From contig JBEKBG010000007.1 in assembly GCA_050015515.1 (NCBI GenBank), positions 1 through 41,805 on the forward strand: 41,805 nucleotides of DNA, given 5' to 3'. The position numbers and the translations under genes are program-made. The notes beneath the pieces were generated by a model, which saw nothing but the letters and a program-made list of their open reading frames with translations, searched no databases and had not been told where the DNA came from. This document shows positions 3,592-39,552 of the stretch, one piece after another; position 1 is the stretch's first letter; the number at the start of each line of letters is the position of its first letter. This stretch comes from Minisyncoccia bacterium (GTDB taxonomy: Bacteria; Patescibacteriota; Minisyncoccia; UBA6257; 2-01-FULL-56-20).

Positions 3592-3743
3592 CTCTCGCGC
3601 CAGCATCGTATTCTGCGAGGGGCTCCGCAGGCGGTTCGGCATGGTCCGTTCGTTCTGACGAACGGCGAACCGCCGAGGACTGAGCGAGCCCATCGCTGGG
3701 TGGGCGAAGCGTACCCTCGCAGAATACGATGCTGGCGCGAGAG
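3592..3743. repeat. Fold-back element: perfect 30-bp inverted arms around a 92-nt branched core (GGGTAC family)
   Basis: 3592-3621 is the exact reverse complement of 3714-3743; interior has GCTC/GAGC, ccgttcgt/acgaacgg and gcccatc/ggtgggc stems. Confidence 0.9.
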
Positions 3744-3746
3744 CCT

Positions 3747-5804
3747 CTATATCTTCTGCAACGTCAGCGTGAACATCAGTCGCCCGGGCGTGCTGGTGGA
3801 ATTGTACGTAAAGCTCGCAAGACCGTTCTCGGCGAACGCATAGCCGAGCGGCGCATCCACTTCGATGTGATAATTCCCCGTCGCGCCGCTCGGGCGTTCG
3901 AAAATAAATTGATATTGCACACCGGCGGCGGGCAGCGCGAATAAGTTGCGCGAGTAATCGAACGAGAGCGTGGATGACTGGCCCGCATACGTTCGCGACC
4001 ACACGGCAAACACCTGCTTACCCGATTCCGTATGCGTCGTTACTTTTGGATAACTGAAATTTTGCTGCGTCGCTGAAGCGATGGCGAGCACGTTCGGGTC
4101 GGTGCTATAGCCGTCGCGCGCATAGTTGATCGGCGCAGGGACGCTCTTCGCGATTCCGCCACTCTGGTTCTGCAACGTGCTCCCGTTCGGCACAAAGATC
4201 TGCATATAATCCTGGTTGGTCGTTTGATACCACCAGTATGGACTTTGGTTGCCGTTATGCGTGCGCGTGATGGTGAGGTTTGTGGTCAGCGTGCCGTCGC
4301 TCCCGATCGCAGCGTCGTAGCTAATATCCTGCACCATATACAGCTCCGACTTATCGCTGTTGATATCCGCGTTCACGATCGCAAGATAATCACCGTTGAA
4401 GTTTTGCGGGAGCTGATAGACATCGCCCGTCGCGCCGTACGCGTTGGCGAACGTCTCAAACGCAGGGTTGGTCGCATAAAACATTAAATCTTTATTGGAA
4501 ATCCAGTTGAGTGCGAGCCCAAGTATCTGTTGTTTCTGCGCATCCGTGGAAGACGCAAGTTGTTGGATGATCGCGGGGTAGAGCTGCGACAACACCGCCT
4601 TCGGATACGTAGCATTGCCTCCACCGGACTTTGCCTGGCCTGCCTGCACGATCTTTTGGATCTGCGTCACGAGATTGTCGGAAGTGAATGTCGTTGATGC
4701 GACGTTAATCGGTCCCGTCACCGAGAGCAGATCGCTCATCACCTGCGGCGTCACCGCGACAACGCCATCGAATGTGGTGGATGGCGTGGCCGCTTCAAAC
4801 ATACTGATCGTCTCCGACGCGGACGTCGGGAAGTCAAAGAACCAGTTCGCATCAGCGGGGCGGAACGCGATCTCTTCCAACTGCAGCGGCACGGGCGGTT
4901 CGATCTTTTGTTTGAACGCCGTGTCCACATCCGCAACATCATGAAACGCGATGTTAGAGATCTTCCCGTTGTTGATAGAGACATCCGCATAGCTTCCCAA
5001 AAATCCCCCGCCCGGACGCATCTCCGACGGATTTTGGAAAAGCACAAGGAGGTGGTGTGTGGTTGACGCATCGGAGAGCCATGGCACAAACGCATCCAAA
5101 AAAGTTTCCGCGCCCTTTATCTGCGTGGTCAGTGCCAGATAGCTTTCCCCGCTGATCGGCGACGCGGTGCCCAATGACGATGCCGCGCCGGAGAGCGCGC
5201 CGCTGTCCGCGTCGATCGCGGTAAGCGTGTCGCGCACACTCGCAAGGTCTGCAGCGAGCGTGCTGCTCCCATTCCCGGAAACAAATCCGAACGCATCATT
5301 TTCAATGCTCGTTATATTGTTTGAAAGTGTTGTTAGTTGATTGGAGAGATCGGTGAATGACCGGATCGTGGCGCTGCTTCCCGCGAAAAAAGAGACAAGA
5401 GATCCCCAAGGCCCATCCGCCGCCGACGAGGCGTTCAATGATGAGAATTCTTGCGCGGCGGACTGTGGATTCAAGTTCTGCAGATCCTGCACACCCGCTT
5501 GCAACGTACCGATCCGTGATGAGATCGTCGCCGCAATCTCGCGCTTCACCAAATAATATGAAACCGCAAAGCCGCCAATAAAAAGCACGATCAGCCCGGC
5601 AGCGGCCCACTTGATGCCGCGCGGGAGCGGTTGCCGACGATCCTCGCCACGAAACCGCCAATAATTGCTGTTCGTCACCGGAATGTCGCGCAAGTGGTCG
5701 GTGTTTTCCTTCACCTCGCGCTGGGTGATCTTTACTAGCTCGTCCGCACGGATATCATCCGCCGCATGCTCCGACTGCAGTTTTTTCTCCTCGCGATCAG
5801 CCAT
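3747..5804 (-). CDS. DUF4012 domain-containing membrane-anchored protein
   Basis: Single N-terminal TM; LLVLFQNPSEMRPGGGFLGSY, DANWFFDFPTSA and DGVVAVTP motifs typical of DUF4012. Confidence 0.85.
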   Translation of the reverse strand: MADREEKKLQSEHAADDIRADELVKITQREVKENTDHLRDIPVTNSNYWRFRGEDRRQPLPRGIKWAAAGLIVLFIGGFAVSYYLVKREIAATISSRIGTLQAGVQDLQNLNPQSAAQEFSSLNASSAADGPWGSLVSFFAGSSATIRSFTDLSNQLTTLSNNITSIENDAFGFVSGNGSSTLAADLASVRDTLTAIDADSGALSGAASSLGTASPISGESYLALTTQIKGAETFLDAFVPWLSDASTTHHLLVLFQNPSEMRPGGGFLGSYADVSINNGKISNIAFHDVADVDTAFKQKIEPPVPLQLEEIAFRPADANWFFDFPTSASETISMFEAATPSTTFDGVVAVTPQVMSDLLSVTGPINVASTTFTSDNLVTQIQKIVQAGQAKSGGGNATYPKAVLSQLYPAIIQQLASSTDAQKQQILGLALNWISNKDLMFYATNPAFETFANAYGATGDVYQLPQNFNGDYLAIVNADINSDKSELYMVQDISYDAAIGSDGTLTTNLTITRTHNGNQSPYWWYQTTNQDYMQIFVPNGSTLQNQSGGIAKSVPAPINYARDGYSTDPNVLAIASATQQNFSYPKVTTHTESGKQVFAVWSRTYAGQSSTLSFDYSRNLFALPAAGVQYQFIFERPSGATGNYHIEVDAPLGYAFAENGLASFTYNSTSTPGRLMFTLTLQKI

Positions 5805-5846
5805 AGGGATATTTTAGCACGATATTTTTGTTATACTAAAAATACT

Positions 5847-7841
5847 ATGATAAAAAAACTCACTTCCTGGTTCACTGCTACCGCCCTCGTACTGATCTGC
5901 ATCACTTCATTCGGCCTGATGTTCTACGCGTCGCGCACTGATTCCGCGATCATGGACGAGCTCGCACACATCCCCGCCGGCTACGGTTACGTGAGCCAAC
6001 TCGATTACCGGTTGAACCCCGAGCATCCCCCGCTCGTGAAAGCGCTCGCGATGCTGCCGGTGCTGATATTCGTGCAGCCAACATTCCCCACAAACAACGC
6101 GGCGTGGACAACGGAAGTGAACGGGCAGTGGGATATGGGCACCGCGTTCCTCTATAATTCGGGCAACGACGCGAATGCGATCATCCAGGTGGGGCGCGTG
6201 ATGCCGATCCTGCTCACCATCCTCACCATCATTCTCGTCTACTTTCTCGCGCGGCGGTTTGTGGGAAAACTTTGGGCGCTTCTGCCGACATTCCTCTTTG
6301 CGCTCGACCCGACCGTGCTCGGGCACGGGCATTATGTGACGACCGACCTCGGCGCTGCGTTCGGCGTCATTCTCGCCATATTTTTCTTTTTGAGATATAT
6401 CAATGATCCGTCCACGAAAAATTTGTGGTACGCCGGGCTCGCGTTCGGCGTGGCGCAGGTCGCCAAATTCTCAACGCCCTTACTCGTCCCGCTCTTTATC
6501 TTTCTCTTTATCGTTTTATGGCTGCGCGACCTCATCGCGCAATGGAGCACGACCGATGCGTCACGCCGCGCAAAAACGTTTTTTGCAAAGCTGTGCCGCT
6601 CCGCGTGGAAGTGCGCGCTCATCTTTGTGATCGGCTACGCGTTCATCGTCTATCCGATCTATTTCTTATTCACCGCCGGCTATCCGGTCCAAAGGCAGGT
6701 TTCTGACACGACCGCGATCCTCACTTCGTTTGCTACTGGCCCCACACCAGCCGACCAACTATGCCACGGCATGCGATGCATCGCCGACGCGGATATCTGG
6801 ATGGCAGGACATCGCCTTACGCAACCGATCGCGGAGTACTCGCTCGGCATCCTAATGGTGTTGCAACGCGCGGACGGTGGCAACACGATCTACTTCCTCG
6901 GCCACGTAGCGCAAAGCGGCGGCTGGATCTACTTCCCCGCGCTCTTCCTTTTGAAAGAACCGATCCCGACGCTCATCATCGTCTTCCTCGCACTCGCGCT
7001 CGCCGCGTGGTGGACCATTAAAAAAACATTAAAACGCAGATCCACCGGCGGGTCGACGATTGGACGGCGGATACTCGATTACCTCACGCTCAATTTCGGC
7101 GAATTCTCGCTCGCGTCGTTCATCGTCCTCTATTGGGGGTACAGCATGCACAGTCCGTTGAACATCGGCATCCGGCATATCCTACCCACCCTCCCGCTCA
7201 TCTTCATCCTTGCCGCCGTCGTGTGGAAAAAATGGATCACAAAATTAAATTTCGGTGCGATGGCGTCCTCAAGCTCTTTCGCCGCGCTCGCACGATCATT
7301 CCTTTCTCCCGTCATCAAATATATTTTTCTCATCTTGCTCCTCGCATGGTTGCTTCTCGAGACATTCTTCGCCGCGCCGTACTTCCTCTCGTACTTCAAT
7401 GAGTTCGGCGGTGGCGTCCAGGGCGGCTATCACTTCGTGACCGATTCCAATTACGACTGGGGACAGGACTTACTCCGGCTGCAATCGTGGGTGAACGCCA
7501 ACCCGCAGGTGGATAAGATCGCAGTGGATTATTTCGGCGGCGGCGATCCGCACTATTATCTCGGCAATAAAGAAGTGAATTGGTCATCAGCGCAAGGCAA
7601 TCCCGCCGACCAGGGTATTCACTGGCTTGCCGTTTCCGTAAACACGCTCGAGCTCGCCACCCAGCCGCTCGCGCCCGGCCAGACGCGCAACGCGTCGGAC
7701 ACCTACTCGTGGCTCACCGCGCTGCGCGCTTCCAGTTCGGGCGCCGACGCGACCGGTACCTGGCTCGGCGGCGATATGGGCAACGTCCCCACCCCGGACG
7801 CGCGCGCAGGAACATCGATCTTCATCTATCATCTGCAATAA
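5847..7841 (+). CDS. GT-C fold membrane glycosyltransferase (PMT/ArnT, GT39/83-like)
   Basis: DE motif (IMDELAH), NPEHPPLVK, many TM segments, DSNYDWGQD; start re-called at ATG 5847 after TGnTATACT. Confidence 0.85.
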   Translation: MIKKLTSWFTATALVLICITSFGLMFYASRTDSAIMDELAHIPAGYGYVSQLDYRLNPEHPPLVKALAMLPVLIFVQPTFPTNNAAWTTEVNGQWDMGTAFLYNSGNDANAIIQVGRVMPILLTILTIILVYFLARRFVGKLWALLPTFLFALDPTVLGHGHYVTTDLGAAFGVILAIFFFLRYINDPSTKNLWYAGLAFGVAQVAKFSTPLLVPLFIFLFIVLWLRDLIAQWSTTDASRRAKTFFAKLCRSAWKCALIFVIGYAFIVYPIYFLFTAGYPVQRQVSDTTAILTSFATGPTPADQLCHGMRCIADADIWMAGHRLTQPIAEYSLGILMVLQRADGGNTIYFLGHVAQSGGWIYFPALFLLKEPIPTLIIVFLALALAAWWTIKKTLKRRSTGGSTIGRRILDYLTLNFGEFSLASFIVLYWGYSMHSPLNIGIRHILPTLPLIFILAAVVWKKWITKLNFGAMASSSSFAALARSFLSPVIKYIFLILLLAWLLLETFFAAPYFLSYFNEFGGGVQGGYHFVTDSNYDWGQDLLRLQSWVNANPQVDKIAVDYFGGGDPHYYLGNKEVNWSSAQGNPADQGIHWLAVSVNTLELATQPLAPGQTRNASDTYSWLTALRASSSGADATGTWLGGDMGNVPTPDARAGTSIFIYHLQ

Positions 7842-7856
7842 GTTCCCCTACGACAT

Positions 7857-7888
7857 AGGCGGCACCCTCACGTGTCGCCTTTCTTTTT
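7857..7888 (+). terminator. Intrinsic terminator of the glycosyltransferase gene
   Basis: aggcggcac-loop-gtgtcgcct followed by ttcttttt. Confidence 0.7.
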
Positions 7889-7901
7889 ATCTTTTATCAC
7901 G

Positions 7902-8026
7902 TAGCAAAAACACAAAGGGATATTATTTTGAGGGCTCTCGGAGACGACGAAGGTCGCCGAGAGGGAGCGGCCGCGCAGCAGCGCGGAACGCGTACCTCAA
8001 GATAATATCCCTTTGTGTTTTTGCTA
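7902..8026. repeat. Fold-back element: 32-bp inverted arms (1 mismatch) around a branched core (GGGTAC family)
   Basis: 7902-7933 vs 7995-8026; right arm includes the ftsQ stop codon; core gctc...gagc, ccgcgc/gcgcgg, GCGTA. Confidence 0.9.
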
Positions 8027-8869
8027 TTTATAGAACAATCGGTTCTCCGTCCGGCAATCAACGTACTGCAGTTTATCAAAATTAGATTGCAACATCAGCT
8101 TCTGGATGACCGGCAAATATTCGTCCGCCGGGAATTGCAGACTGAAGTAGATCGTCGGCCCGTTCGCCGTTTGCACATCCACTTCCTGGAGCGAGAGATC
8201 GTTCAGCTCAATGGCCTGCACGCTGAGGCCGCTCGCGTGCAAGACGTTCATGATGGAAATAAAATTCGGGAGGAACTCGTCCGACAGCACTTTTTGATTC
8301 AGCCCGCGCGGCGCTTGCGCACGATCATATACCGTGTAGACCAGATCGCCCTGCGTCTCCCCGGCCTTTTCAAAGATCGTGCCGGTGTTATCGAACCAGT
8401 AGCAGGGTGCGTTCGTATCCGTCGCAGTGGTCGAAGCCGCGCTTACACCCGGCGATGCGGAAAAACACCAGATGCCGAACGGTGAACGTTCGGTGACGGT
8501 GATAGTGATGGTATGCGAAAAAAAATCTTTGGAGATATTCGCGTTCGCGAGCTGCGGGATCATCTGAAGTTCGCCCTGCGGGATGCTCGCCGGCCACAGC
8601 AGCATATTATCGAACGTGAGTGCGGCGCGGAGAATGTCATGGCTGGGAAACGCGCTTGCCTCCGCGAGCGCGATCACATCCGTGTTTGAGATCGCACTAT
8701 TCCCCTGCACCACCACGTGGTCCACACGGAATACCGGCGAACGAAGCACTAGCCATTGCGCGGCAAAAAATATCCCGTAAAAAATTACCAACCCGAGCGC
8801 GGTTAAAAGATACGCGCGGCGGCGCTTGCGCTTTCTCTTATGGTCGGAAATATACGGCGCGATCTGCAT
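8024..8869 (-). CDS. ftsQ: Cell division protein FtsQ/DivIB
   Basis: Basic N-terminus, one TM, POTRA-like SPVFRVDHVVVQGN...ITITVTER, C-terminal YVDCRTENRLFYK. Confidence 0.8.
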   Translation of the reverse strand: MQIAPYISDHKRKRKRRRAYLLTALGLVIFYGIFFAAQWLVLRSPVFRVDHVVVQGNSAISNTDVIALAEASAFPSHDILRAALTFDNMLLWPASIPQGELQMIPQLANANISKDFFSHTITITVTERSPFGIWCFSASPGVSAASTTATDTNAPCYWFDNTGTIFEKAGETQGDLVYTVYDRAQAPRGLNQKVLSDEFLPNFISIMNVLHASGLSVQAIELNDLSLQEVDVQTANGPTIYFSLQFPADEYLPVIQKLMLQSNFDKLQYVDCRTENRLFYK

Positions 8870-8886
8870 GAATCAATGATACCACT

Positions 8887-8966
8887 CCGCGAAAAGGAAG
8901 GAGGATGCGCCTTCGCAGCATGGAAGATTAAATGCTGCGAAAGCGTATCCTCCTTCCTTTTCGCGG
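8887..8966. repeat. Long hairpin: 35-bp arms (2 mismatches), loop GGAAGATTAA
   Basis: 8887-8921 vs 8932-8966, just downstream of the serS stop. Confidence 0.9.
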
Positions 8967-8973
8967 CCGCATT

Positions 8974-10275
8974 CTATCCTATAACCTTTTTGCCTACGTA
9001 TTTTTGTAACACCTCCGGCACCATCACTTTTCCGTCCGCCGTTTGATAATTTTCAAGGATCGCGATGAACACGCGCGGACTCGGCAGCGCGGTGTTGTTC
9101 AACATGTACACATATTTCTTCTCGCCGGTCTTCGTGTCTACGTACTTCACGTTCAGGCGGCGCGACTGCCAGTCGAGGAAATTGCTCGCGGAGCCGGTCT
9201 CGGCCCAACGGTTCATACCCGGAAGCCACGCCTCGGTGTCATATTGCTTGTATTTGCCCGCGCCGAGATCGCCGGTGCAAATAAGCAGGCGCCGATAAGG
9301 CAAACCAAGCTCCTCGTGCATCTCGCCGGAGATCGCCACCATCTCGTCCTGAAGTTTATTTGCGGCCTCGATGTCCGCCTCCGCCAGCACCACCTGCTCC
9401 ACCTTCATGAACTCGTGCACGCGGTACATGCCCTTCACGTCTTTGCCGTAACTGCCGATCTCACTCCGATAGCATTGGCTGTAGCCCGCATTCTTTATCG
9501 GAAGCTGGTCCGCCTTCAAAACTTCATCCGAATAATATGCCAAGAGCGATGGCTCCGATGTTCCCACCAAAAACTTTTTCTCCACGCTTTTTTCGCCGCT
9601 TGCTTCCTTATCGCTCGTCGCGATCTCGTAGATTTCATCCACCTCCGGATCATAATCAGTCCCTTTGAAATATCCCGTACCGAACAACACAAATTCCTTA
9701 ACGAGCGTCGGCGGGATCATCGGCTTAAATCCCTTCTCCACCATCTTATTCACGGCATACATCATGATGCCCATCACGAGCTGCACGCCTTCGTTCTTTA
9801 AATAGTAACCGCGGAAGCCACCGATCTTTGTGCCTTTTTCAAAGTCGAGGATGTCGAGCGACGTACCGAGCGCCATATGATCCTTCGGCGTGAAGTCGAA
9901 TTTTTTCGGCTCCTTGTCCGACCCGCCGCCATGCGGGATCCAGCGGAACACTTCCTTGTTCTCACTTTCGTCCTTGCCTACCGGCACGTCCGGCGAAATA
10001 ATATTCGGCACACGCACCATCAGTTCACGAAATCGCTTCTCGAGCGGCTTCAATTTTTCTTCTTGCTCTTTGAATTGCTCTTTCAACTTGGCGCCCGCTT
10101 CGCGATCCTGCGTCTTTTTTTGCTCCGCGCGGAGGTTTTCCGACGTGGTCATCAACTCGCGCCGCTTCGCGTCCACATCCAAAAGCTCGTCAATGACCGC
10201 GGGGTCCAGGTTCTTTTTAACCGCCGCATCCTTTATGGCCGACGCATTCTCGCGGATGAACTTGATGTCGAGCAT
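8974..10275 (-). CDS. serS: Serine--tRNA ligase
   Basis: MLDIKFIREN start, N-terminal coiled arm, GTSE, YRSEIGSYG..GMYRVHEF.KVEQ, LNNTA..R class II motifs. Confidence 0.97.
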   Translation of the reverse strand: MLDIKFIRENASAIKDAAVKKNLDPAVIDELLDVDAKRRELMTTSENLRAEQKKTQDREAGAKLKEQFKEQEEKLKPLEKRFRELMVRVPNIISPDVPVGKDESENKEVFRWIPHGGGSDKEPKKFDFTPKDHMALGTSLDILDFEKGTKIGGFRGYYLKNEGVQLVMGIMMYAVNKMVEKGFKPMIPPTLVKEFVLFGTGYFKGTDYDPEVDEIYEIATSDKEASGEKSVEKKFLVGTSEPSLLAYYSDEVLKADQLPIKNAGYSQCYRSEIGSYGKDVKGMYRVHEFMKVEQVVLAEADIEAANKLQDEMVAISGEMHEELGLPYRRLLICTGDLGAGKYKQYDTEAWLPGMNRWAETGSASNFLDWQSRRLNVKYVDTKTGEKKYVYMLNNTALPSPRVFIAILENYQTADGKVMVPEVLQKYVGKKVIG

Positions 10276-10316
10276 ATGGCTATCATAGCGCAGGAGTTAG
10301 GATTTTTCCAACTATG

Positions 10317-10344
10317 AAAAAGGTCCGCTGTCGCCAGCGGACCC
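10317..10344 (-). terminator. Intrinsic terminator downstream of the GNAT gene
   Basis: On the minus strand ggtccgctg-loop-cagcggacc followed by a T run. Confidence 0.65.
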
Positions 10345-10358
10345 CTGAACCTGCGCGC

Positions 10359-10808
10359 TCATTGTCCTACCGGAAGCGACATGAGGTGATAATTTGAACC
10401 GAACACTTCCAAGGTTCTGAAGCCGAAGTAGTGGAGATAATAGTCAGGAAGGCTTTTCTTCGCGTCTGCGGTAAGAAGGATAAGATGGGCATTCTTCCTC
10501 CTGCCGATCTCTTTAATCAACCGCGCCACGAGTGCCTTGCCTATCCCTCTCCGTTGATGATGGGCAACAACGTTCACCCAAAAAATCTAGTAGATGTTGT
10601 AGTCCATCCACGACTGGATGTATCCGGCGAAGCCGATGATCTGGCCGCGCTCTTCCGCAACGAAATATACCGGCCGCGGGCCCCCACCCGTGGCGAACAT
10701 GTCCCCGATCTCTTTCCTCGCCGATAGTTCATATTTCCGTGAATAATTCTCTCCGACAATCGCGGCAGCCTTTCTCGCTTCACCTTTTCGTAATAGCCTG
10801 ATTCTCAT
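10359..10808 (-). pseudogene. GNAT family acetyltransferase interrupted by an in-frame TAG
   Basis: ORFs 10587..10808 and 10359..10577 are in the same frame: ...SWMDYNIY*IFWVNVVAHHQRRGIGKALV (acetyl-CoA motif A); GGAGG SD upstream. Confidence 0.8.
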
Positions 10809-11033
10809 GGCGTGCCTCCTAGGAAACTAGCTAGATTAAATCATAAATAGAGGAAGAAGTCGAGGGCGTCAAGTAGAGCGTGTTTGAATGGATTTGTACT
10901 GCCGATGTCGAATAAATGTTTTTGGAAAAAATAAACACTCTTGCGACCACAGGAATCCGGACAACGCATTGAATTCATCCTCTCACCGCATCCCCTTCAA
11001 AAATTCTGCTATTTGGCATAGAATGACTATATT

Positions 11034-12821
11034 ATGGCTCATAACGAATCGACCGGCGCTTCCGTGGAGCAGCTCGACCACATTCGCCACTCGCTGGCGC
11101 ACCTCCTTGCGGCGGCGGTGCTGAAAGAATTCCCCGACGCCAAGCTCGGCATCGGCCCGACGGTCGAAAACGGGTTCTACTACGACTTCCTACTCCCCCG
11201 TGCGATCGGGCCGGATGATTTGAAGACGCTTGAGAAGACGATGCGCGGCTTCGTCAATAAAAAACTGGCATTCACCGGACGCGAGGTCACGCCCGCGGAA
11301 GCGAAGAAACTTTTCGCCAAACAGCCTTTTAAGCTGGATTTAATAAAAGATTTTACGGGGGAGGGTGAGGTAGGCAAAGAGAAAGAGAAGTTGACCGTCT
11401 ACAAGACCGGCGATATCTTTATGGACCTTTGCCGCGGCGGCCACGTTGAAAACACCTCCGAAATCCCCGCTGACGGTTTCAAACTCGACAAGATCGCGGG
11501 CGCCTACTGGCGCGGCGACGAAAAAAACCAACAGCTCCAGCGCATCTACGGCCTGGCATTCGAAAGCAAGGAGAAATTAAAAGAGTATGAAACGATGATG
11601 GAAGAGGCGAAGAGACGGGATCACAAGATTCTCGGCCCGAAGCTGGATCTCTTTACCTTCTCCGACCTCGTTGGGCCGGGACTTCCCCTCTGGACACCGA
11701 AAGGAACGACGGTAAGAAATCTTCTTGATGATTTCGTGTGGGAGCTCCGCAAGAAGCGCGGCTATCTTCAGGTTGATATCCCCCACATCACAAAAAAGGA
11801 ACTTTATGAAAAAAGTGGGCACTGGGATAAGTTTAAAGATGAGCTTTTCAAAATCGAAACGCGTGAAGGGCATCTCTACGCGATGAAGCCGATGAACTGC
11901 CCGCACCACACGCAGATCTACGCGCGTAAGCAGTGGAGCTATCGCGAACTCCCCCAGCGATACGCGAACACCACCAAGGTGTACCGTGATGAACAATCGG
12001 GCGAGCTCGCCGGGCTTTCGCGCGTGCTCTCCATCACCCAGGATGATGCGCATGTGTTCTGCCGCACGTCACAAATAAAAGAGGAGATATTCAAGATCTG
12101 GGATATCGTCACCGAATTCTATGGGGTGTTTGGTTTTGAACTCTCCATCCGATTGTCGCTCCACGATCCTGAACATCCCGAAAAATATCTTGGCACGCCC
12201 GAGCTGTGGCGCAATGCAGAGGAACATCTCCGCCAACTCGTGGAAGAGCATGGCGCGAAGGCCGTCGAAGCGCCGGGAGAGGCGGCGCTCTATGGCCCGA
12301 AGATCGACTTCATGGGCAAAGACGCAATCGGCCGTTCGGTTCAGATCGCCACCATCCAGCTCGACATGAATCAGCCGGAACGGTTCGACCTTTTCTGTAT
12401 CAATGAGAACGGTGAGCGCGAACGTATTGTGATGATCCACGCAGCGATTATGGGATCAATCGAACGATTCCTCTCCGTCATCATCGAGCACTTCGCCGGC
12501 AAGTTCCCCGTCTGGCTCGCGCCGGTGCAGGCGACCATTCTCCCGGTCAGTGAAAAATTTGCAGATTACGGAAAGAAAACATACGACGCGCTCGTTACCG
12601 CGGACATCCGCGCGGAACTTTCCGAAGCCAACGAATCGCTCGGTAAACGCATCCGCGAGGCGGAAGTTATGAAAATCCCTTACGTGCTCGTCGTCGGCGA
12701 AAAAGAAGCTGGTGCGGGAACCGTGAACGTCCGCAGCCGGAATGGCGGCGAGGGCGAGGAAATGCCGCTTGAAAAATTCCTCGGAAAAATTTCCGAAGAC
12801 GTAAGCACTAAGCGGCTATAG
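11034..12821 (+). CDS. thrS: Threonine--tRNA ligase (lacks N-terminal TGS domain)
   Basis: RHSLAHLLA, DLCRGGH, RDHK, KPMNCPHH, HAAIMGSIERF motifs. Confidence 0.97.
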   Translation: MAHNESTGASVEQLDHIRHSLAHLLAAAVLKEFPDAKLGIGPTVENGFYYDFLLPRAIGPDDLKTLEKTMRGFVNKKLAFTGREVTPAEAKKLFAKQPFKLDLIKDFTGEGEVGKEKEKLTVYKTGDIFMDLCRGGHVENTSEIPADGFKLDKIAGAYWRGDEKNQQLQRIYGLAFESKEKLKEYETMMEEAKRRDHKILGPKLDLFTFSDLVGPGLPLWTPKGTTVRNLLDDFVWELRKKRGYLQVDIPHITKKELYEKSGHWDKFKDELFKIETREGHLYAMKPMNCPHHTQIYARKQWSYRELPQRYANTTKVYRDEQSGELAGLSRVLSITQDDAHVFCRTSQIKEEIFKIWDIVTEFYGVFGFELSIRLSLHDPEHPEKYLGTPELWRNAEEHLRQLVEEHGAKAVEAPGEAALYGPKIDFMGKDAIGRSVQIATIQLDMNQPERFDLFCINENGERERIVMIHAAIMGSIERFLSVIIEHFAGKFPVWLAPVQATILPVSEKFADYGKKTYDALVTADIRAELSEANESLGKRIREAEVMKIPYVLVVGEKEAGAGTVNVRSRNGGEGEEMPLEKFLGKISEDVSTKRL

Positions 12822-12859
12822 AAAAATGGCTCCAGAAACCATAAGATCTCTGAAGCCAT
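12822..12859 (-). terminator. Intrinsic terminator for the small minus-strand gene
   Basis: Minus strand: atggcttcagaga-loop-tttctggagccat then a T run (G-U pairs favour the minus strand). Confidence 0.6.
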
Positions 12860-12865
12860 GACCTC

Positions 12866-13069
12866 CTACGAAGCGGATGGTGTTTTCGCTTTCCGTGACG
12901 GTGAGGAAGAAAAAACGTACTCGAACCGCATCTGAACGACCTCTCTTCGCGCGGGAGGATGACTGAAAATGCGACGACGCACCATCCGCGCGAGCGCGAG
13001 AGCCGGCACAAAAATACAAGCGACTCCCAACACTATCAACGAGACTAAACTTAGACCTTCCCAATCCAT
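12866..13069 (-). CDS. Small single-pass membrane hypothetical protein (67 aa)
   Basis: GGAGGTGATC directly before the ATG, hydrophobic helix followed by a basic patch, terminator after the stop. Confidence 0.6.
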   Translation of the reverse strand: MDWEGLSLVSLIVLGVACIFVPALALARMVRRRIFSHPPARREVVQMRFEYVFSSSPSRKAKTPSAS

Positions 13070-13108
13070 GATCACCTCCCGGCGATCTTTCTGAAAACAT
13101 TATATAAT

Positions 13109-14023
13109 ATGGAAAAAAAAGGGTCAATCCCGCGCATCATCGCCGTCGTCGGCCCGACGGCCAGCGGAAAAACCGCGCTCGGGATCGCGCTCGCACGCGA
13201 ATTCGGCGGCGAGATCGTCTCCGCCGACTCCCGACAGATCTATCGCGGGATGGACATCGGCACCGCAAAGCCGACCGCAGCGGAGCGCCGCGCGATCCCC
13301 CATCATCTTATTGATATCAAAGATCCCGACGAGGACTACACCGTCGCGGACTACCAGCGCGATGCCATTGCCGCGATCAACAGCATCATCGCGCGGGGCA
13401 ACGTTCCCCTGCTCGTCGGCGGCACCGGGCTCTATGTGCGAGCGGTACTGGAGAATTTGGATATCCCGAAAACGGTTGCCAATCCGGAGCTGCGTGCGCA
13501 AATAGAAAAAGAGATCGCGGATGTCGGGCTGGAAGCCGTGTTCAAAAAATTAGTGGCTCTCGACCCGGAAGCTGCGTACGTGGTGGACCCGAAGAATCCC
13601 CGCCGCGTGGTGCGTGCGCTTGAGGTCGCGATCGCGACGGGTGTTCCGTTCACCGCGCAGCGTGCGAAGCATGCGCCGCTCTTTGATACGCTCGTGCTTG
13701 GGCTCAATCCTGCGCCGGAGATATTGCGCGAGCGCATCGACCGGCGCGTGGATGCGATGATGCGCGATGGACTCGTTCATGAAGTTTCAACGCTTATAAA
13801 AAAATACGGCCAAGCGCCGACCGCGTTCGACGCGATTGGCTATCGAGAAATTGTCGCTCACCTCGATGGCGCGCTATCGCTCGAGGACGCCACGACGGTG
13901 ATCAAAATGGACACATGGCACTACGCCAAGCGCCAGATGACGTGGTTCAAAAAGAGCAACAGAATCCACTGGATCGAAGGTATCAATGAATCGTTTCCTC
14001 TCGCACAAAATTTTTTACGCTAG
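13109..14023 (+). CDS. miaA: tRNA dimethylallyltransferase
   Basis: GPTASGKT, DSRQIYRGMDIGTAKP, VGGTGLY, AKRQMTWF. Confidence 0.97.
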   Translation: MEKKGSIPRIIAVVGPTASGKTALGIALAREFGGEIVSADSRQIYRGMDIGTAKPTAAERRAIPHHLIDIKDPDEDYTVADYQRDAIAAINSIIARGNVPLLVGGTGLYVRAVLENLDIPKTVANPELRAQIEKEIADVGLEAVFKKLVALDPEAAYVVDPKNPRRVVRALEVAIATGVPFTAQRAKHAPLFDTLVLGLNPAPEILRERIDRRVDAMMRDGLVHEVSTLIKKYGQAPTAFDAIGYREIVAHLDGALSLEDATTVIKMDTWHYAKRQMTWFKKSNRIHWIEGINESFPLAQNFLR

Positions 14024-29515: not shown

Positions 29516-29548
<33 letters not shown>

Positions 29549-29690
29549 CTTCCATACATAGCTACCCGGCAATTCACTTGGTAGCAAAGCCGGTAGACCA
29601 GAGGTATGTTCAACCCAGTCCTCTCGTACTAAGGTCAACTCCCCTCAAGTATTAAACGCCTGCAGCAGATAGAGACCGACCTGTCTCACG

Positions 29691-30045
29691 CAACTTCTTT
29701 TTCATCGCCATTACTGGCGGGTTGGACTATACCACCATCTCAATTGAGATGATCGACGTGTTAGCCCGGCATGATTGCCGGACTCCAGTTCTTTCGAACC
29801 AAGTCTCTAAGGGGTCAATGCACAAAAATAAATTTTGCGCACGACTTCCCTCGGTATTATCCTCACGGTCCAGGTCTAGACCACATAAGGACTTCACCGA
29901 TATGAGTCGATTTTCACGCTTTACGATTCGTCGGACGAATGACGAACTTTAATGCAAAGCTTCACTCCTTGGTATCGCTACCAAGGGCCGCCGTTTCTTC
30001 TTTTAACAGTTTCTTTCGTTACCTTCGATTGGGTTATCTACGTTG
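29691..30045 (-). ncRNA. Group I intron at 23S position 2593 (E. coli numbering), no ORF, 355 nt
   Basis: Interrupts GACCGU|CGUGAGA; exon ends in U, intron ends in G; core-like cttagagact and gtatagtcc. Confidence 0.9.
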
Positions 30046-30716
30046 ACGGTCTGAACCCAGCTCACGTGCCACTTTAATTGGCGAACAGCCAAACGCTTGG
30101 GAGCTTCTACACCCCCGCGCTGTGGCGAGCCGACATCGAGGTGCCGAGCATTGTCGTCGCTAGGGACGCTCGGACAATACTAGCCTGTTATCCCCGGAGT
30201 AGCTTTTATCCGGTGTCTCCGGCCTTTCTATGAAGGGCCGTCGGGTCACTAACTTCTGCTTTCGCACCTGCTCGTCTTGTAGGACTCGCAGTCAAGCCAG
30301 CTTTTGCGTTTGCACGTCCTGCCCGATTTCCATCCGGGCTAAGCTGACCTTAATAAACTCCTCCGTTACTCTTTTGGAGGAAAACGCCCCATTTAAACTG
30401 CCTACCAAGCACTGTCTTCGCATGGCTTCCCCGAAGGGTTCCATACGAGTTAGACGTTAAAGTTTTAAAAATGGCTGTTTCATTGTCGGATCCACGTCAC
30501 CCGAAAGCGACGCTTCAAATCCTCACCACTACGCTACGTAGTAAAACTCTAAAATCAATACCAAGCTGCAGTAAAGCTTCCGGGGTCTTTTCGTCCCGCT
30601 GCAGGTATCCCGCGTCTTCACGGGAATCGCATTTTCACCGAGCTCATCGTTGAGACAGTTCTCCGGTCGTTACACCTTTCGTGCGCTTCGGAACTTACCC
30701 GAAAAGGAATTGCGCT

Positions 30717-31166
30717 CAAACATGTTACAACACTTTTTGTTGGCCAAAACATTTCTGCTTGGCTCTCTATGTCGCCATAGAGTTCGGACTATATCTTATC
30801 GCCTTGCGACGATCCTAACGTGTAGTCTCTGAGGATCCTTCGCGCATCGAGTAATGGGTGGGAATGGGATCCGAAGATCCCATTCCCATGGGAGATAACA
30901 CAACTTTGCTGTGTCAATACATTCCGGATGAGCCGAAGCTCAAAATATCCTCTTGCGGGATACCGAATGGCGTTGAACCAAAAGATTCGCGGCGTCACGG
31001 TCCCGCATCGGGAAATGTCGGACTTTGACCTTATGTTTTCGCCCATTATTCGATGCACCAAGTTTCCTGCTGATTGTCCGCATCGATCAAAGATTGTTAC
31101 CTTGCGGTACTTTGATATGCGCGGGTATTCCAGCATATAGTTAGGTTTTACTAAGGCAATGCAATC
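30717..31166 (-). ncRNA. Group I intron at 23S position 1931, 450 nt
   Basis: Interrupts CUAAGGU|AGCG; 5' gccttag guide pairs with the exon; aatcagcagg, ctcagagactac, aagatatagtcc; terminal G. Confidence 0.92.
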
Positions 31167-31180
31167 ACCTTAGAACGATT

Positions 31181-31922
31181 CTTTCACGTTATCACCCGCT
31201 CGTTTTTTAATTTAAGCGGGATCCTCATGGTCGCCCATGAGATCGGACTATATCATCTCTAAAATGTTTTAGAGTCTGGCGTATAGTCTCTGAGGATTCC
31301 TTGATAGTCTATTTCACGTCGTTCCAGTTATATTTACGCCTTCTTCCCCTGCCCTCATTTAAATTTTCTCTGATAGCGACAATTTCTTGAAGTCCTTTTG
31401 GATCAAGATGCTTCCCTTGCTCCATTAAAAATGCAATTTGTCTAAACAGAGAAAAGTTTTTCTGTTTTGATAAGGAAAAGAAAGAAAACTTTTCAAAAAA
31501 CGGTATGACGCGATCAATGATCGAACGATAATCGCCAACAACGAAGTAATGCACTCCGTCCTTTCGATATTGCAATCGTCCGCAACCTAAATGACTTTTT
31601 AATAATTCCAAATTGGCGATGTCGCGCTGGGCCACGTTGAAGGTCATTTGCACCTGCCATCCGAGGCGGTGCCCATTCCCTTTTCGAAGAGAGACGTTAA
31701 AACTTCCCTCTCCATCTGTGAAACCAGAAAGATACCAGCCAACGTTGTCTGGAATTTTCTCAAGCCATTCACGGTTATACCAAGGCCTTTCCTGCTGATT
31801 GTCTGCACCGATCATATTGTCACTATACTCAATCAAGATTAAATCTTTATTAAATATAGTAATGTCGGATACCCAGAGTTTCCAGCATTTGGCCAGATTT
31901 TATAACTACAATCGTTATGTTT
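31181..31922 (-). mobile_element. Group I intron at 23S position 1917 carrying a homing endonuclease, 742 nt
   Basis: Interrupts AACUAU|AAUCG; core aatcagcagg, ctcagagactata, gatatagtcc; terminal G. Confidence 0.92.
31309..31836 (-). CDS. Single-motif LAGLIDADG homing endonuclease
   Basis: WYLSGFTDGEGSF, F.VAQ, LGCG, IPFFEK..K..NF..F motifs; lies inside the L1917 intron. Confidence 0.95.
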   Translation of the reverse strand: MIEYSDNMIGADNQQERPWYNREWLEKIPDNVGWYLSGFTDGEGSFNVSLRKGNGHRLGWQVQMTFNVAQRDIANLELLKSHLGCGRLQYRKDGVHYFVVGDYRSIIDRVIPFFEKFSFFSLSKQKNFSLFRQIAFLMEQGKHLDPKGLQEIVAIRENLNEGRGRRRKYNWNDVK

Positions 31923-33341
31923 ATAGTTATCGCTGACATTGACGAGGGCTTGACTCAGTGAGCAGTACAGATTGCTCCATACCACCCCCAAGCTTGACCT
32001 TCTCGCATCGGTCAGGTGTCACCCCCTATACATCCTGTTGCCAGTTAGCAGGGAGCTGTGTTTTTGGTAAACAGTCGCCAGAGATTCTTTAGCTGCGGCC
32101 CTACTTGCCCCGGCTTACGCCGGACTTCATAGGGCAGGCCTTATTGCTAACTTACGGCCGCTATTTTGCCTAGTTCCTTAACGATGAATCACTCGTTCCC
32201 CTTGGGCTACTCGCCCTATCCACCAGTGTCGGTTTACGGTACGGAGACCCTCGAAAGGCACTTCACAGATGTCGGCCAAGTAAATTCTTAACCTTCTCTC
32301 GGTACACGCTTGCGCTCAGTACAAAGAATGCCAAACCAATAAGGCACATCTGCTTATCTCCTTTGTCCTCTGGTTATGATCGTACGGTCGGGCTGGAATA
32401 TTAACCAGCTTCCCATCGACTGCCCCTTTCGGGATCGCCTTAGGACCGCCTCACCCGTGGTTGATTGCCAGTGCCACGGAAACCTTGGATTTTCGGGGTT
32501 CCAATTTCTCATTGGGATTGTGGTTACTCATTCCAACATTTTCTCTTCCGGCCGCTCCAGTCGCCCTCGCGGGTCGACCTTCTCTGCAGGCCGAAATGCT
32601 CTCCTACCACTTACACCTCCCGAAGGAAGTATAAATTCGTATCTTCGGTACCATGCTTAGCCCCGGTACATTTTCGGCGCCGCGACCCGTCGAATAGTGA
32701 GTTGTTACACACTCTTTAAAGGATGGCTACCTCTAAGCCAACCTCCTATCTGTCTATGGGTTACGACTACCTTTCACACTTAGCATGGATTTAGGGACCT
32801 TAGATGACGATCTGGGCTCTTCCCCTCGCGACCACGGAGCTTAGCCCCCGCAGTCTAACTAGCAAGATCTTGACTCTCGGTATTCGGAGTTTGATTGATC
32901 GTTCGGTCTTTCGACCTGTAACGATCATCCAGTGCTCTACCCCCAAGAGGAACTCTTGCCGCCAGTCCTAAAACTGTTTCGGAGAGAACCAGCTATTACG
33001 TTATTCGATTAGCTTTTCACTCCTTACCTCAGCTCATCCGAAGATTTTGAACAATCAACCGGTTCGGGCCTCCCTCCCGATTTCTCGGGAGTTCACCCTG
33101 GCCAAGGCAAGCTCATAACGCTTCGGGTCTATCTTCTGCTGCATATATGTCGCCCTATTCAGACTCGCTTTCGCTATGCCTACACGCTATGCGCGCTTAG
33201 ACTGCAACAAAAAATAAGTCGTTGGATCATTCTTCAATAGGCACACTGTTACACTCGAACTCCCTTGCGGGAGATCGTTCGTGCTTCAGTTCCTTGTAGG
33301 CAAACGGTTTCAGGTTCTATTTCAACGGCCTCACCGGCCTG

Positions 33342-33378
<37 letters not shown>

Positions 33379-33951
33379 ATCTAGAAAAGTATTTAGCCTT
33401 ACCTGATAGTACAGGTATATTCCTCCGGAACTGTTTTACTCCGAAGTACTCGAGTTAAAAAACTAAGGAGACCAATTGTTTTCGTCTAGGGGGCTATCAC
33501 CCGCTCTGGCGCCGCTTTCCAGACGGCTTTGACTAACAAAAGATTTTTTTACTCCTCCACCTCTTAATGAGTAACGAAACACACACTTGCGTATGTGCTA
33601 CGTTACTTATTAAAAGAGCGTCTTTAGACTATACCCTAAGGTCGCAATATAAATCACAACCTTAGTTTGGGCTGTTCCCTGTTCTCTCGCCGATACTAGG
33701 GGAATAACTGATTTGTTCTTTTTTCCTCCGCTTACTGGAATGTTTTACTTCAGCGGGTACGCGAATCGACTTGCGTCGAAACAATTGAGGTTTACTCAAC
33801 TAGGTTTCCCCATTCGGAAATCCCCGGATCATAGATTGCTACGCATCTCCCCGAGGCATATCGTTGCTACGCCACGTCCTTCATCGCCTTTTCTAGTCTA
33901 GGCATCCACCGTTCGCCCTTATTTGCCAACCATCCCAATGCTGACTTGCTC

Positions 33952-34032
33952 GTGATGTGCACGAATTAGTTTTTTTGACGGAAATGCCAGGTAGGAACCT
34001 GACCGTCAAAAAAATTAATTCGCGCACATCAC
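33952..34032. repeat. Fold-back element: 25-bp arms around the conserved 31-nt core
   Basis: Arms 33952-33976/34008-34032 (2 mismatches); core gacggaaatgccaggtaggaacctgaccgtc. Confidence 0.9.
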
Positions 34033-34989: not shown

Positions 34990-35070
34990 GAAACAAAACC
35001 ATCCTCTCGTTTTTGACGGTCACGTTCCTACGTGGCATTTCCGTCAAAAACGAGAGGATGGTTTTGTTTC
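34990..35070. repeat. Fold-back element: perfect 25-bp arms around the same 31-nt core in the opposite orientation
   Basis: Arms 34990-35014/35046-35070; core reverse complement gacggaaatgccacgtaggaacgtgaccgtc. Confidence 0.92.
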
Positions 35071-35256: not shown

Positions 35257-35320
35257 TTGACAGGCTATGGTATGGGTTTATAGTTATTACCAAGTAATAC
35301 TAAGTAATAACCATAAACCC
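35257..35320 (+). promoter_or_regulatory. Toxin-antitoxin promoter with overlapping inverted-repeat operator
   Basis: TTGACA-16nt-TATAGT; 17-bp inverted repeat 35274-35290/35304-35320 with repeated GTAATA. Confidence 0.75.
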
Positions 35321-35635
35321 ATGAGAACCACACAAACAATGACGGTCTCCATTCCCCCGGCGCTTATCCGCCAGTTCGAAGAAGTGCGGAAAAAGGAATC
35401 ACGCACGCGGTCCGAGCTTGTTCGTGAGGCTCTGCGTGCATATTTCGAAAGCCGCTATCCCGAGGTAACGCCAACGAAAGAAGAACTTGCGGCACTGCGA
35501 CGCGGACGAGCTGCCTTCCAGCGCGGCGACGTTATGCCGTTAAAAAAATTCCTCCATGACATGGAATCTGCTGATCACCACGCCAGCGCGAAAAGAACTC
35601 AAAAAAATTCCGCAAAAAGATCGGGGGCGCATTAA
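35321..35635 (+). CDS. Ribbon-helix-helix (CopG family) antitoxin
   Basis: TMTVSIP...RTRSELVREALRAY RHH pattern; upstream of and overlapping the RelE-like gene. Confidence 0.85.
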   Translation: MRTTQTMTVSIPPALIRQFEEVRKKESRTRSELVREALRAYFESRYPEVTPTKEELAALRRGRAAFQRGDVMPLKKFLHDMESADHHASAKRTQKNSAKRSGAH

Positions 35636-37759: not shown

Positions 37760-38890
37760 TTACCGCACCACCGCGCCGAACTCCTTCGCCGTCTCCTCCT
37801 CTATTTTCTTGTGCAACACATCCACTTCCTCGTTCGTGAGCGTGCGGTCGCTTGAACGGTACGTGATCCGGTATGCATAGCTCTTTTTGTCCGCGCCGAA
37901 CTTTTCGGCATTCTCATACTCGTCGATAAGCTCCACCTGCTCCACGACCTCGCCCGCGATGTCGCGCACGAGGTCAAAATAATTGTTCGGCGCGAACGTC
38001 TTCGGAACAATGAACGAGATGTCGCGCAACACCGGCGGATACTTGCTGACTTCCACAAACTTGGTTCCCATGTGTAACTGCTTCTTTACACGCTCGTCGT
38101 TGGACCACAGCAGACGGATGTCCGGCAACTCCATGCTGATGATGGCAAGCCGCTCCAGGCCGAAGCCGAACGCCCATGCGTTGTATCCCATGACGCCGAA
38201 TTTTTTAAACACGCTTTGCTTCGTCATACCACCGCCCATGATCTCGATCCACTTGCCATTCAACTCCACCTCTATCTGCAACGACGGATCGGTGTACGGG
38301 AACGTGTCATCCAAAAAGCGGAATTTCACATCCGCGCCGAAGAGCGCACGCACGATTTCGGCGAGCGCGTTGCGCAGATCGTCGATCGTGAGCGGATCCG
38401 TGTCCGCAGGCGTCATATACCACCCGCCGAACTGGTGGAAAGTGTTCATGTGATTCCGGTCTATCTCATCCTTGCGATACACCTTGCCGTAGCAAACGAC
38501 GCCTAGCTTCTCGTGGCGCGCGATGCGCTCCTTTACCTCCGGCAGTTGCGTGTAGTAATACCACATCACCGTGTCGTGCGTGCGCAAAATATTCTTGTCG
38601 TCAGCATAATATGTGTCGGATTTGCTCCGCGCCGGATGATCCGCGGCAAAATCGAAGAGGTCAAAGTTGATAGAGGCGGGCACGATTTCCGGGATGATGA
38701 TGTTGTCGAAGCCTTTCAAAACCGGCGTATTGCATGCGCTTTGCACGATCTCATAGAGCGGACTGCCCGGCGTGCGGGAAAGGTCCGGCATGGCGAGATA
38801 GCGCTTGATGCGCGCCGCCTCCGCATCCGTGCGCGCGTCGACCGTCGTCAAAATCTTTTTCTGCTCATCGAGGGAGATCTGGTATTCCAT
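37760..38890 (-). CDS. pheS: Monomeric (mitochondrial-type) phenylalanine--tRNA ligase: alpha catalytic domain plus FDX anticodon-binding domain
   Basis: HPARSKSDTYY, LRTH, GKVYRKDEID..H...FHQ, FPYTDPS, AFGFGLERL, then SKYPPVLRDISF...YRITYRSSDRTLTNEEV. Confidence 0.9.
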   Translation of the reverse strand: MEYQISLDEQKKILTTVDARTDAEAARIKRYLAMPDLSRTPGSPLYEIVQSACNTPVLKGFDNIIIPEIVPASINFDLFDFAADHPARSKSDTYYADDKNILRTHDTVMWYYYTQLPEVKERIARHEKLGVVCYGKVYRKDEIDRNHMNTFHQFGGWYMTPADTDPLTIDDLRNALAEIVRALFGADVKFRFLDDTFPYTDPSLQIEVELNGKWIEIMGGGMTKQSVFKKFGVMGYNAWAFGFGLERLAIISMELPDIRLLWSNDERVKKQLHMGTKFVEVSKYPPVLRDISFIVPKTFAPNNYFDLVRDIAGEVVEQVELIDEYENAEKFGADKKSYAYRITYRSSDRTLTNEEVDVLHKKIEEETAKEFGAVVR

Positions 38891-39289: not shown

Positions 39290-39311
39290 GGTCATATCAT
39301 ACCTTATTCTT

Positions 39312-39427
39312 TGTGCCGACGGCAGGGATCGCCCGCGAGTCTCGCGCTCGCCGTCGCTCGCACGAGCTCTGGGCACCGCCTCAGCGATTTTCTCTGGTGA
39401 GAAAATCGCTTCCGGCGTTCGATCCCT
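39312..39427 (-). repeat. Duplicated tRNA 3' end (20 bp) joined to a structured insert
   Basis: tgtgccgacggcagggatcg at 39312-39331 is identical to 39552-39571; agggatcg pairs with cgatccct at 39420-39427; internal 12-bp hairpin 39383-39410. Confidence 0.85.
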
Positions 39428-39439
39428 TCTACAAACAAA

Positions 39440-39552
39440 AGCTTATCCAACATGCCCCGAAAGGGTACTTCGGAGCCGCGCAGGCGGCGAGAACTAAGGC
39501 GCGCGTTCAGTAGAACGCGACGCCGTCCCTTTCGGGGCATGTTGGATAAGCT
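39440..39552. repeat. Fold-back element: perfect 26-bp arms around a branched core (GGGTAC family)
   Basis: 39440-39465 vs 39527-39552, abutting the tRNA 3' end; core starts GGG|TAC then the gccgc/gcggc hairpin. Confidence 0.88.

Follow-up and report, generated by a model that had tools for sequence, protein, structure and literature searches.

The window is a stretch of 41,805 nucleotides from a Minisyncoccia bacterium (assembly GCA_050015515.1, contig JBEKBG010000007.1), namely contig 7 of a genome of 774 kb in 23 contigs that is 98% complete and is labelled G000 below. The sequencing runs that bear this genome are peat and permafrost metagenomes. The window holds ten long intergenic hairpins, whose arms (26-37 nt, 93-100% complementary) enclose centres of a few recurring kinds, and these hairpins are the subject of this report. 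An earlier note on this DNA had listed ten such elements, and all ten were confirmed at their coordinates. For comparison we used 22 other species genomes of the genus, with approximately 70-88% nucleotide identity in genes; these relatives are distant, and the direction of change was set by parsimony. The hairpins, which are named by their first position, and the features that they adjoin are as follows.

3592-3743: hairpin; arms 3592-3621 and 3714-3743, paired at 30/30 positions; 92-nt centre, a long variant of the L type; 3 nt off the stop codon of a DUF4012 gene (3747-5804, minus strand)
7902-8026: hairpin; arms 7902-7933 and 7995-8026, 31/32; 61-nt L centre; the right arm finishes on the stop codon (3 nt) of an ftsQ-like gene (8024-8869, minus strand)
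8887-8966: hairpin; arms 33/35; 10-nt F1 loop GGAAGATTAA; between the ftsQ-like gene and serS
16046-16146: hairpin; arms 28/28; 45-nt centre related to F5; occupies the convergent cmk-rplK gap from stop to stop, with the cmk stop (7 nt) taken into one arm
18158-18197: plain two-way terminator that lacks a family centre and consists of A-run, GACCC stem, 6-nt loop and T-run
26686-26769: hairpin; arms 37/37; 10-nt F1 loop; 26753-26769 are the last 17 nt of rodA (IRKRS and stop), 26686-26702 their inverted copy
29079-29190, minus strand: 5S rRNA; a processing stem of its own (29065-29084 and 29186-29205) flanks it
29191-29285: hairpin of the 23S-5S spacer, immediately 5' of the 5S rRNA; core arms 29206-29270, 28/28; 9-nt loop GAAGATTAA
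29317-29383: hairpin directly 3' of the 23S rRNA; arms 29/29; 9-nt loop TTAATCTGC, which is F1 in the opposite orientation
29403-33932, minus strand: 23S rRNA, 4.5 kb with intron-like inserts and with family hairpins on both flanks
33952-34032: hairpin directly 5' of the 23S rRNA; arms 28/30; 21-nt F2 centre
34990-35070: hairpin; arms 30/30; 21-nt F2 centre; between the stop of a NUDIX gene and the 3' end of tRNA-Pro
39440-39552: hairpin; arms 26/26; 61-nt L centre; abuts the 3' end of tRNA-Met (39553-39625, minus strand)

Centres are shared between loci, as the earlier note had held. Four are of the GGAAGATTAA type (F1), two of the 21-nt AAATGCCACGTAGGAACGTGA type (F2) and two of the L type (about 61 nt, two small hairpins), to which one long L variant is added; a further centre is related to a 32-nt family. 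Long centres like that of hairpin 3592 also occur at G000:C1:55960 and G018:595636. Two more of its observations were borne out, that arms run into the neighbouring genes (rodA, cmk and the ftsQ-like gene, to the extent listed) and that the elements sit at 3' ends. In addition to positions near stop codons, they occupy the 3' ends of tRNA-Pro and tRNA-Met, both flanks of the 23S rRNA and the front of the 5S rRNA.

Number and architecture of the hairpins in the genome

A gapless scan of the whole genome (arms of at least 18 nt, loop of at most 120 nt) returned 108 hairpins, a far larger set than that of the window, compared to 1 in a block-shuffled genome used as control. Arm length has a median of 30.5 nt and a maximum of 43. 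In 73 of the 108 the arms are perfect, and all arms together contain 59 mismatches over 3218 positions.

The arms had been described as essentially unrelated between loci. This holds for their outer parts, which were single-copy in 79 of 89 tested cases (arms of at least 24 nt minus the 10 nt next to the loop, with a match defined as at least 15 nt at 85% identity or more), but not for the inner 10-25 nt, which are family-specific (for example TTTTTGACGG or TTTTGAGGCAT) and in most cases begin TTTTGA...TCAAAA. Beyond the inner arm follow a C/T-rich box and then an A-run, together making up the stem and the A/T runs of a symmetric terminator. Conservation declines from the centre outward. In most dispersed repeats of bacteria the ends are conserved and the middle varies; the elements described here reverse this usual pattern, with a conserved middle and varying ends.

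The centres are 9-105 nt long and fall into about eight families genome-wide.

F1: G(G)AAGATTAA, 26 copies
F2: AAATGCCACGTAGGAACGTGA, 18 copies
F3: GGGCTCACCCTTCGGGAT, 10 copies
F4, F5, F8 and F9: 4-6 copies each
L type: 56-75 nt, with longer variants of about 100 nt; 27 centres, counted with a covariance model built from this analysis

The L centre is a compact three-way junction with two small hairpins, and at hairpin 7902 both the hairpins and the conserved junctions are present. Compensatory changes were seen in 13 of 17 pairs, with no variation in the unpaired letters. Hardly any G-U pairs occur (7 G-U versus 4 A-C cells for 17 pairs in 26 sequences), which means that both strands pair equally well. 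L centres were detected in all genomes of the genus (22/22, with 1-35 copies each; G018 has 16). Of the family's other genera 8 of 14 have them, and of the order's other families 1 of 24. The F2 centre, searched with up to 2 mismatches, was absent from 300 other genomes sampled across the class.

Rfam 15 at the gathering threshold identified only rRNA, tRNA and 5S in the whole window and matched no centre, consistent with the undescribed system that the earlier note had put forward as a candidate. With relaxed thresholds (E<=1 for the window, E<=10 for three short stretches), generic long-hairpin models for miRNA precursors, VA RNA and plastid 3'-UTRs were returned, none of which reached threshold. 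Even at E<=10, zero matches fell on the L centre at 7934-7994. DNA-uptake sequences were set aside as an identity for the elements, since the families are too numerous, each has too few copies, and they are located in loops instead of stems.

In the 23S-5S spacer, the two adjacent F1 hairpins are also complementary to each other (22/23 positions between 29227-29249 and 29339-29361, comprising loops and inner stems). They could form an alternative structure or a kissing complex in the pre-rRNA.

Assembly check

Palindromes may be generated by fold-back during assembly or amplification. In support of such an artefact, the contigs of one run break mid-way in the 37-bp palindrome at 26686, and the comparison between runs is one of contigs. 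However, contigs from two other runs (X2 and X3) cross hairpins 8887 and 16046 with 0 differences, the closed chromosomes of G014 and G018, which belong to the same genus, contain 55 and 54 comparable hairpins, and substitutions in orthologous hairpins of different species are compensated. An artefact confined to one assembly is thereby ruled out, and the artefact explanation as a whole is close to refuted. As a practical matter, it should be kept in mind that short-read contigs break inside these palindromes.

Genomic position and termination context

Gaps between convergent genes harbour 35 of the 108 hairpins (background 138 of 771 gene pairs) and gaps between divergent genes 12 of the 108 (background 138 of 771), with contexts taken from simple ORF calls and therefore approximate. 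The hairpins start about -12 to +20 nt from a stop codon, and convergent gaps are often filled from stop to stop. Many arms read A-run, G+C box, T-run at stop codons, and plain terminators are found at the same sites in relatives.

Plain terminators, defined as gene-end hairpins with a loop of at most 8 nt, number 39 in G000, compared to 73 and 50 in G014 and G018. Long-armed hairpins (at least 25 nt, with a big loop) are found at 53, 8 and 6 gene ends, respectively, so G000 is the extreme of the three genomes. The uncolonised state is illustrated by the plain terminator at 18158-18197, which is kept in G014 and G003. A simple terminator scan of positions 1-20000, which covers only loops of at most 8 nt, identified 30 sites against 25.4 expected.

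No match to Rho was found in the 98%-complete genome, and an RNase III gene is present. Every species examined has some hairpin flanking its rRNAs. These circumstances are points in favour of an explanation by host function alone, close to the alternative of RNA stems under selection that the earlier note had named, in which the centres are RNA caps selected by the host for binding a protein or nuclease at RNA 3' ends and at rRNA or tRNA processing sites, the stems are selected as double-stranded RNA, and copies spread by ordinary recombination. The compensatory changes and invariant unpaired letters of L, and its occurrence throughout the genus and in 8 of the 14 further genera of its family, are in keeping with this. 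The orientation of the loops is not: relative to the upstream gene it is mixed, with sense to antisense ratios of about 8:4 for F1, 9:2 for F2 and 6:11 for L (counted by hand). The near absence of G-U pairs, with both strands pairing equally, would also be odd for a constraint on RNA only.

Inverted copies of gene ends in the hairpin arms

Hairpins overlap a gene end by at least 6 nt in 33 cases, and the overlap is 6-21 nt long. For 20 of the 32 overlapping hairpins with an ortholog, the terminal residues encoded under the arm are identical in a relative, and of the sequence under the gene-side arm 246 of 327 nt are identical to the relative's gene end. The C-terminus of RodA (SIRKRS*) is the same in G014 and G003, both of which are hairpin-free there. 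As relatives without the hairpin encode the same terminal residues, the far arm in these cases must be the inverted copy of flanking DNA. At the level of sequence, these comparisons demonstrate inverted flank duplication at gene ends.

It had been suggested that about 30 nt of adjacent DNA are copied in inverted orientation. The inverted copying was found (20 of 32 testable cases, 17 nt for rodA), but no fixed length, as the flank copies range from 6 to 21 nt. Replication template switching fits this variable length better than a dedicated enzyme would. The stricter idea that one arm is always the ancestral flank was rejected because it fails at hairpin 8887, where neither arm resembles the 5-nt spacer of empty sites.

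Arms also change in a compensated manner. Between G000 and G003, the hairpin 5' of the 23S rRNA shows 7 differences over 30 arm positions, of which 5 are compensated, and a synonymous GTT/GTC change in a last codon is mirrored in the far arm of each species. Compensated arm evolution is thus evident from the alignments of orthologous hairpins.

Turnover of hairpins and insertion of centres among relatives

Sixty gene-end hairpins were compared with two whole relatives, one-sidedly because one neighbour gene is often without ortholog, which gave 98 informative comparisons. The relative had no hairpin in 59 of these, a plain terminator in 9, a hairpin of another family or another kind in 25, and one of the same family in 5. 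Family abundance is species-specific, with G018 rich in F8 and F4 and G014 rich in F5; the genome comparison demonstrates that families have been expanded species by species.

The hairpin 5' of the 23S rRNA is the most instructive site for the centres, with matches in 17 genomes of the genus. Its outer stem (GTGATGTGCAC/GTGCACATCAC) recurs in species whose centre is a different one and in species where the hairpin is plain. This stem holds F2 in G000 and G003, L in G014, G006 and G018, an F9-like loop in G005 and other loops in G013, G016 and G019, and the hairpin is plain (about 11-13 bp) in G021, G011, G010, G004 and G008. The other hairpins in the rRNA spacers likewise keep their outer arms in part and differ in their centres among species: directly 3' of the 23S rRNA, where the outer arms are partly conserved, L centres are found in G003, G014, G018 and G007, and at the site of 29191-29285 relatives have L or F2 centres. 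At C2:35196, an outer arm in G000 encloses an F2 unit; in G014 this arm, AAAACAAAA(A)GCCCC, belongs to a plain terminator. At the cmk/rplK site, occupied by hairpin 16046 in the window, G014 has the plain terminator A7-CCGGC-TTTC-GCCGG-T7. The orthologous sites demonstrate, as far as parsimony can tell, that centre units land at the tip of hairpins for which relatives have the plain form, and the small core inserted at a site, as postulated earlier, is thereby recovered as apex insertion. A separate observation at the cmk/rplK site is an insertion of about 11.3 kb in G018:C1.

At the two spacers of the ftsQ-like gene, most relatives have abutting stops or short hairpin-free spacers. The site of hairpin 7902 is empty in 5 of the 9 relatives' loci that are readable at the junction, and the X2 contig, from another run, skips this hairpin by joining 7843 to 8023 with 3 letters between. 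The site of hairpin 8887 is represented in relatives by spacers of 15-68 nt without hairpin, except for one relative with an F8-type hairpin that has other arms.

Two side observations concern the neighbourhood of hairpin 7902. Directly after the PMT-like gene and just upstream of this hairpin, positions 7857-7880 (plus strand) form a plain terminator-like hairpin with a T-run, so the convergent pair of PMT-like and ftsQ-like genes has one plain and one colonised hairpin. In L003, L005, L006 and L008, the site of 7842-8023 contains an ORF for 26 hydrophobic amino acids between the PMT-like and ftsQ-like genes, with a TTGACA/TATAAT-like promoter of its own.

In-place inversion of loops was not observed, with no flip in 5 orthologous pairs of the same family and none in the G000/G003 pair 5' of the 23S rRNA. 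Mixed orientations are therefore more likely to date from insertion.

Candidate enzymes

Profiles for Y1_Tnp (PF01797), TnpB (PF07282), rve (PF00665), DDE_Tnp_1 (PF01609) and IS110 (PF01548) had no match in the 98%-complete genome, and tyrosine recombinases are represented by a single Xer-like gene of 315 aa. The HUH/TnpA-like enzyme that had been put forward as a possible driver therefore finds no counterpart, as no Y1_Tnp was detected; a novel transposase beyond these five profiles is possible in G000.

These results bear on the explanation that the elements are classical non-autonomous transposons of the MITE or REP kind, moved in trans by an enzyme that is novel, lost here, or carried by a phage or by the host. 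Species-specific family expansion and differing presence at orthologous sites would be expected for such elements, and every unit has inverted repeats. Insertion sequences that target palindrome loops exist as well, among them ISPpu9, which according to the abstract inserts into REP sequences (PMC12288879). On the other hand, none of the five transposase profiles was matched, the conserved part is the centre instead of the ends, and the flank duplications are inverted and variable in length. Transposases normally yield direct duplications of fixed length. We consider this explanation rather improbable.

The only reverse transcriptase of the genome, 339 aa, is encoded outside the window at G000:C1:89132-92372, between two ORFs with near-identical C-terminal tails of variable type (...DGRIAVGK). 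From this arrangement the cassette looks like a diversity-generating retroelement (DGR). The enzyme is 65% identical to a G014 sequence, and tblastn (E<=1e-3) found no match in G018, which has 54 hairpins. A reverse transcriptase, also named earlier as a possible driver, was therefore dropped.

The same enzyme matters for the proposal that the centres, and L above all, represent a new self-cleaving ribozyme or a retroelement RNA that copies into hairpin tips via an RNA intermediate. L would be suitable, as its compact three-way junction covaries strongly and has invariant letters at the junction, and as it is multicopy, lineage-restricted and without Rfam match; reverse transcriptase genes are present in G000 and G014. 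But the gene has the DGR layout and no tblastn match in G018, which has its 16 L copies all the same; the pairing is Watson-Crick on both strands, both orientations are found, and neither poly-A nor another mark of reverse transcription accompanies the copies. This proposal appears very unlikely to us.

Comparison with known systems

Like the hairpins described here, REP/BIME elements are short intergenic palindromes, present in about 100 copies at gene 3' ends; they can terminate or stabilise RNA. In REP, mobilized by the Y1 enzyme RAYT, it is the stem that is conserved; in the present hairpins conservation lies in the centre, and the stem is single-copy. Identity with REP/BIME (a conserved imperfect palindrome of about 35 nt plus RAYT) was rejected, as the stems are unique and Y1_Tnp is without match. 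Bacterial MITEs such as Correia/NEMIS, ERIC and RUP are small non-autonomous hairpin repeats beside genes, and their copy number varies between species. They have conserved terminal inverted repeats and fixed direct target duplications, in contrast to the conserved centres, unique outer arms and inverted 6-21-nt flank copies seen here. With 79 of 89 outer arms unique, no fixed direct duplication and no cognate transposase among the five profiles, this identity was rejected too.

IS1397 targets palindrome loops. Similarly, ISPpu9 in REP sequences resembles the present elements in that it enters the tip of a hairpin already in place, which is also the pattern of the 23S-proximal hairpin and of C2:35196, but the abstract describes an element of kilobase size that encodes a transposase (PMC12288879), whereas the units here are 30-130 nt long and no transposase was found. 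Palindromes derived from IS200/IS605 were rejected for lack of both a Y1_Tnp and a TnpB zinc-ribbon match. Integron attC sites were rejected as well, as the neighbours are housekeeping genes (rodA, serS, cmk, rplK, rRNA, tRNA), the arms are perfect and the sole tyrosine recombinase is the one of 315 aa. So were products of a retron, DGR or group II intron, given the single, DGR-like reverse transcriptase that tblastn did not find in G018.

Quasipalindrome template-switch mutation perfects arms and extends their identity into the flanks without a dedicated enzyme, according to the abstracts consulted (PMC7202029, PMC8604942, PMC3820800), and this fits the arms and the gene-end copies seen here. 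The abstracts describe it for point and multi-nucleotide mutations and not for about 100 palindromes of 25-43 bp, and it leaves the shared centres unexplained. Hairpin and double-hairpin elements of sponge and fungal mitochondria comprise several families that invade intergenic spacers and rRNA flanks of a compact genome (PMC2800124). These are organellar, and inverted copying of gene ends and an architecture with conserved centres are absent from the description in the abstract (PMC2800124).

Bidirectional intrinsic terminators and the inverted repeats of plastid 3'-UTRs share with the hairpins the symmetry of A-run, stem and T-run after stop codons and between convergent genes, and weak matches to a plastid psbA 3'-UTR hairpin model were obtained below threshold. 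Usual terminators have stems of 5-14 bp and loops of 3-8 nt, whereas the hairpins here have stems of up to 43 bp and, as loops, structured modules that are conserved. In their working, the elements would resemble palindromic repeats and terminators. Literature searches at the level of abstracts returned no account of such elements in Patescibacteria or elsewhere.

Other features of the window

On the minus strand, positions 18688-25422 form a single ORF of 2244 aa that contains all RpoB domains followed by all RpoC domains, which is a fused rpoB-rpoC. At 37760-38890, also on the minus strand, a protein of 376 aa combines the PheRS catalytic core (tRNA-synt_2d) with FDX-ACB and resembles the monomeric mitochondrial-type enzyme, not the bacterial alpha/beta form. 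The 23S region (29403-33932) has three group I intron matches below threshold (29704-29961, 30765-31176 and 31224-31399), contains ORFs at 30789-31136 and 31309-31836, and has no adjoining 16S rRNA. An imperfect palindrome of 51 nt without family centre (35272-35322) lies over the start of the ORF 35267-35635 and, judging by its position, may be an operator site.

Origin of the hairpins

On balance, we favour a layered origin, in which terminator or RNA-processing hairpins were colonised by small structured insertion modules and then enlarged and kept perfect by replication template switching. The first layer would be an ordinary symmetric intrinsic terminator or processing hairpin (A-run, G+C box, T-run) at the end of a gene, tRNA or rRNA. 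Having no Rho, the genus would depend on such terminator hairpins. In the second layer, a structured module with its own inverted repeat of 10-25 nt, usually TTTTGA...TCAAAA, would insert either at the tip of a hairpin already present or shortly after a stop codon. The modules presumably spread without a dedicated transposase, and their inner TTTTGA/TCAAAA motif could serve as microhomology for the copy-in. In the third layer, the new strand would fold back on the hairpin at replication and copy its own flank, placing the last codons of the neighbouring gene in inverted orientation on the far side. Template switching would also hold the arms Watson-Crick perfect.

Template switching is the probable copying mechanism in this sequence of events. 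Inverted flank copies whose length varies speak against a transposase and in favour of fold-back synthesis at the replication fork. In the abstracts of published studies, template switching at inverted repeats is described as homogenising arms, inverting spacers and extending arm identity (PMC8604942, PMC7202029, PMC3820800).

Several observations weigh against the layered origin. No movement event was caught among the compared genomes. Some sites offered no prior hairpin for a landing, as the hairpin between rodA and yceG is lacking in all four relatives examined and the one between the ftsQ-like gene and serS in most relatives. Centres are kept in place far better than arms (21/21 loop positions against 23/30 arm positions between G000 and G003 at the hairpin 5' of the 23S rRNA), and the only difference between the L centre at C3:30313 and its ortholog in G014 lies in one covarying stem; this points to selection on the centre that the layers do not explain. 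The arms at C3:30313 pair at 33/37 positions, and the far arm retains ancestral letters after a change in the gene end; arms are thus not always re-homogenised. In addition, we infer the function from context, that is, that the hairpins terminate transcripts and supply RNase III with double-stranded substrates around rRNA and tRNA, and the counts of context and orientation share the approximate nature of the gene calls.

The conservation of centres in place while arms drift is what host-selected RNA caps would predict. However, the same site has unrelated centres or none in different species, indicating that no particular centre is needed. A far-arm copy of coding DNA past the T-run would be superfluous for termination, and family copy numbers vary widely among species. 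We therefore regard host selection of caps by itself as unlikely, though it deserves serious attention.

Implications

Two of the steps lack precedent in the literature searched at the level of abstracts, namely units that land in hairpin tips, and palindromes that grow by inverted copying of last codons. If template switching alone drives this growth, long perfect palindromes and new terminators would arise quickly without a transposase. Such an origin of terminators bears on transcription punctuation in streamlined genomes without Rho.

The L centre is a new multicopy structured motif. With doubts that outweigh our confidence, the centres might constitute a new class of mobile nucleic-acid modules that are independent of protein and home into hairpin tips and gene ends via the replication fork, each insertion seeding a palindrome that copies its flank backwards. 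In this reading the L unit, with its three-way junction and invariant junction letters, may also be a new catalytic or protein-binding RNA. By such insertions a reduced genome without Rho could acquire and renew its terminators and the processing stems of its rRNAs and tRNAs.

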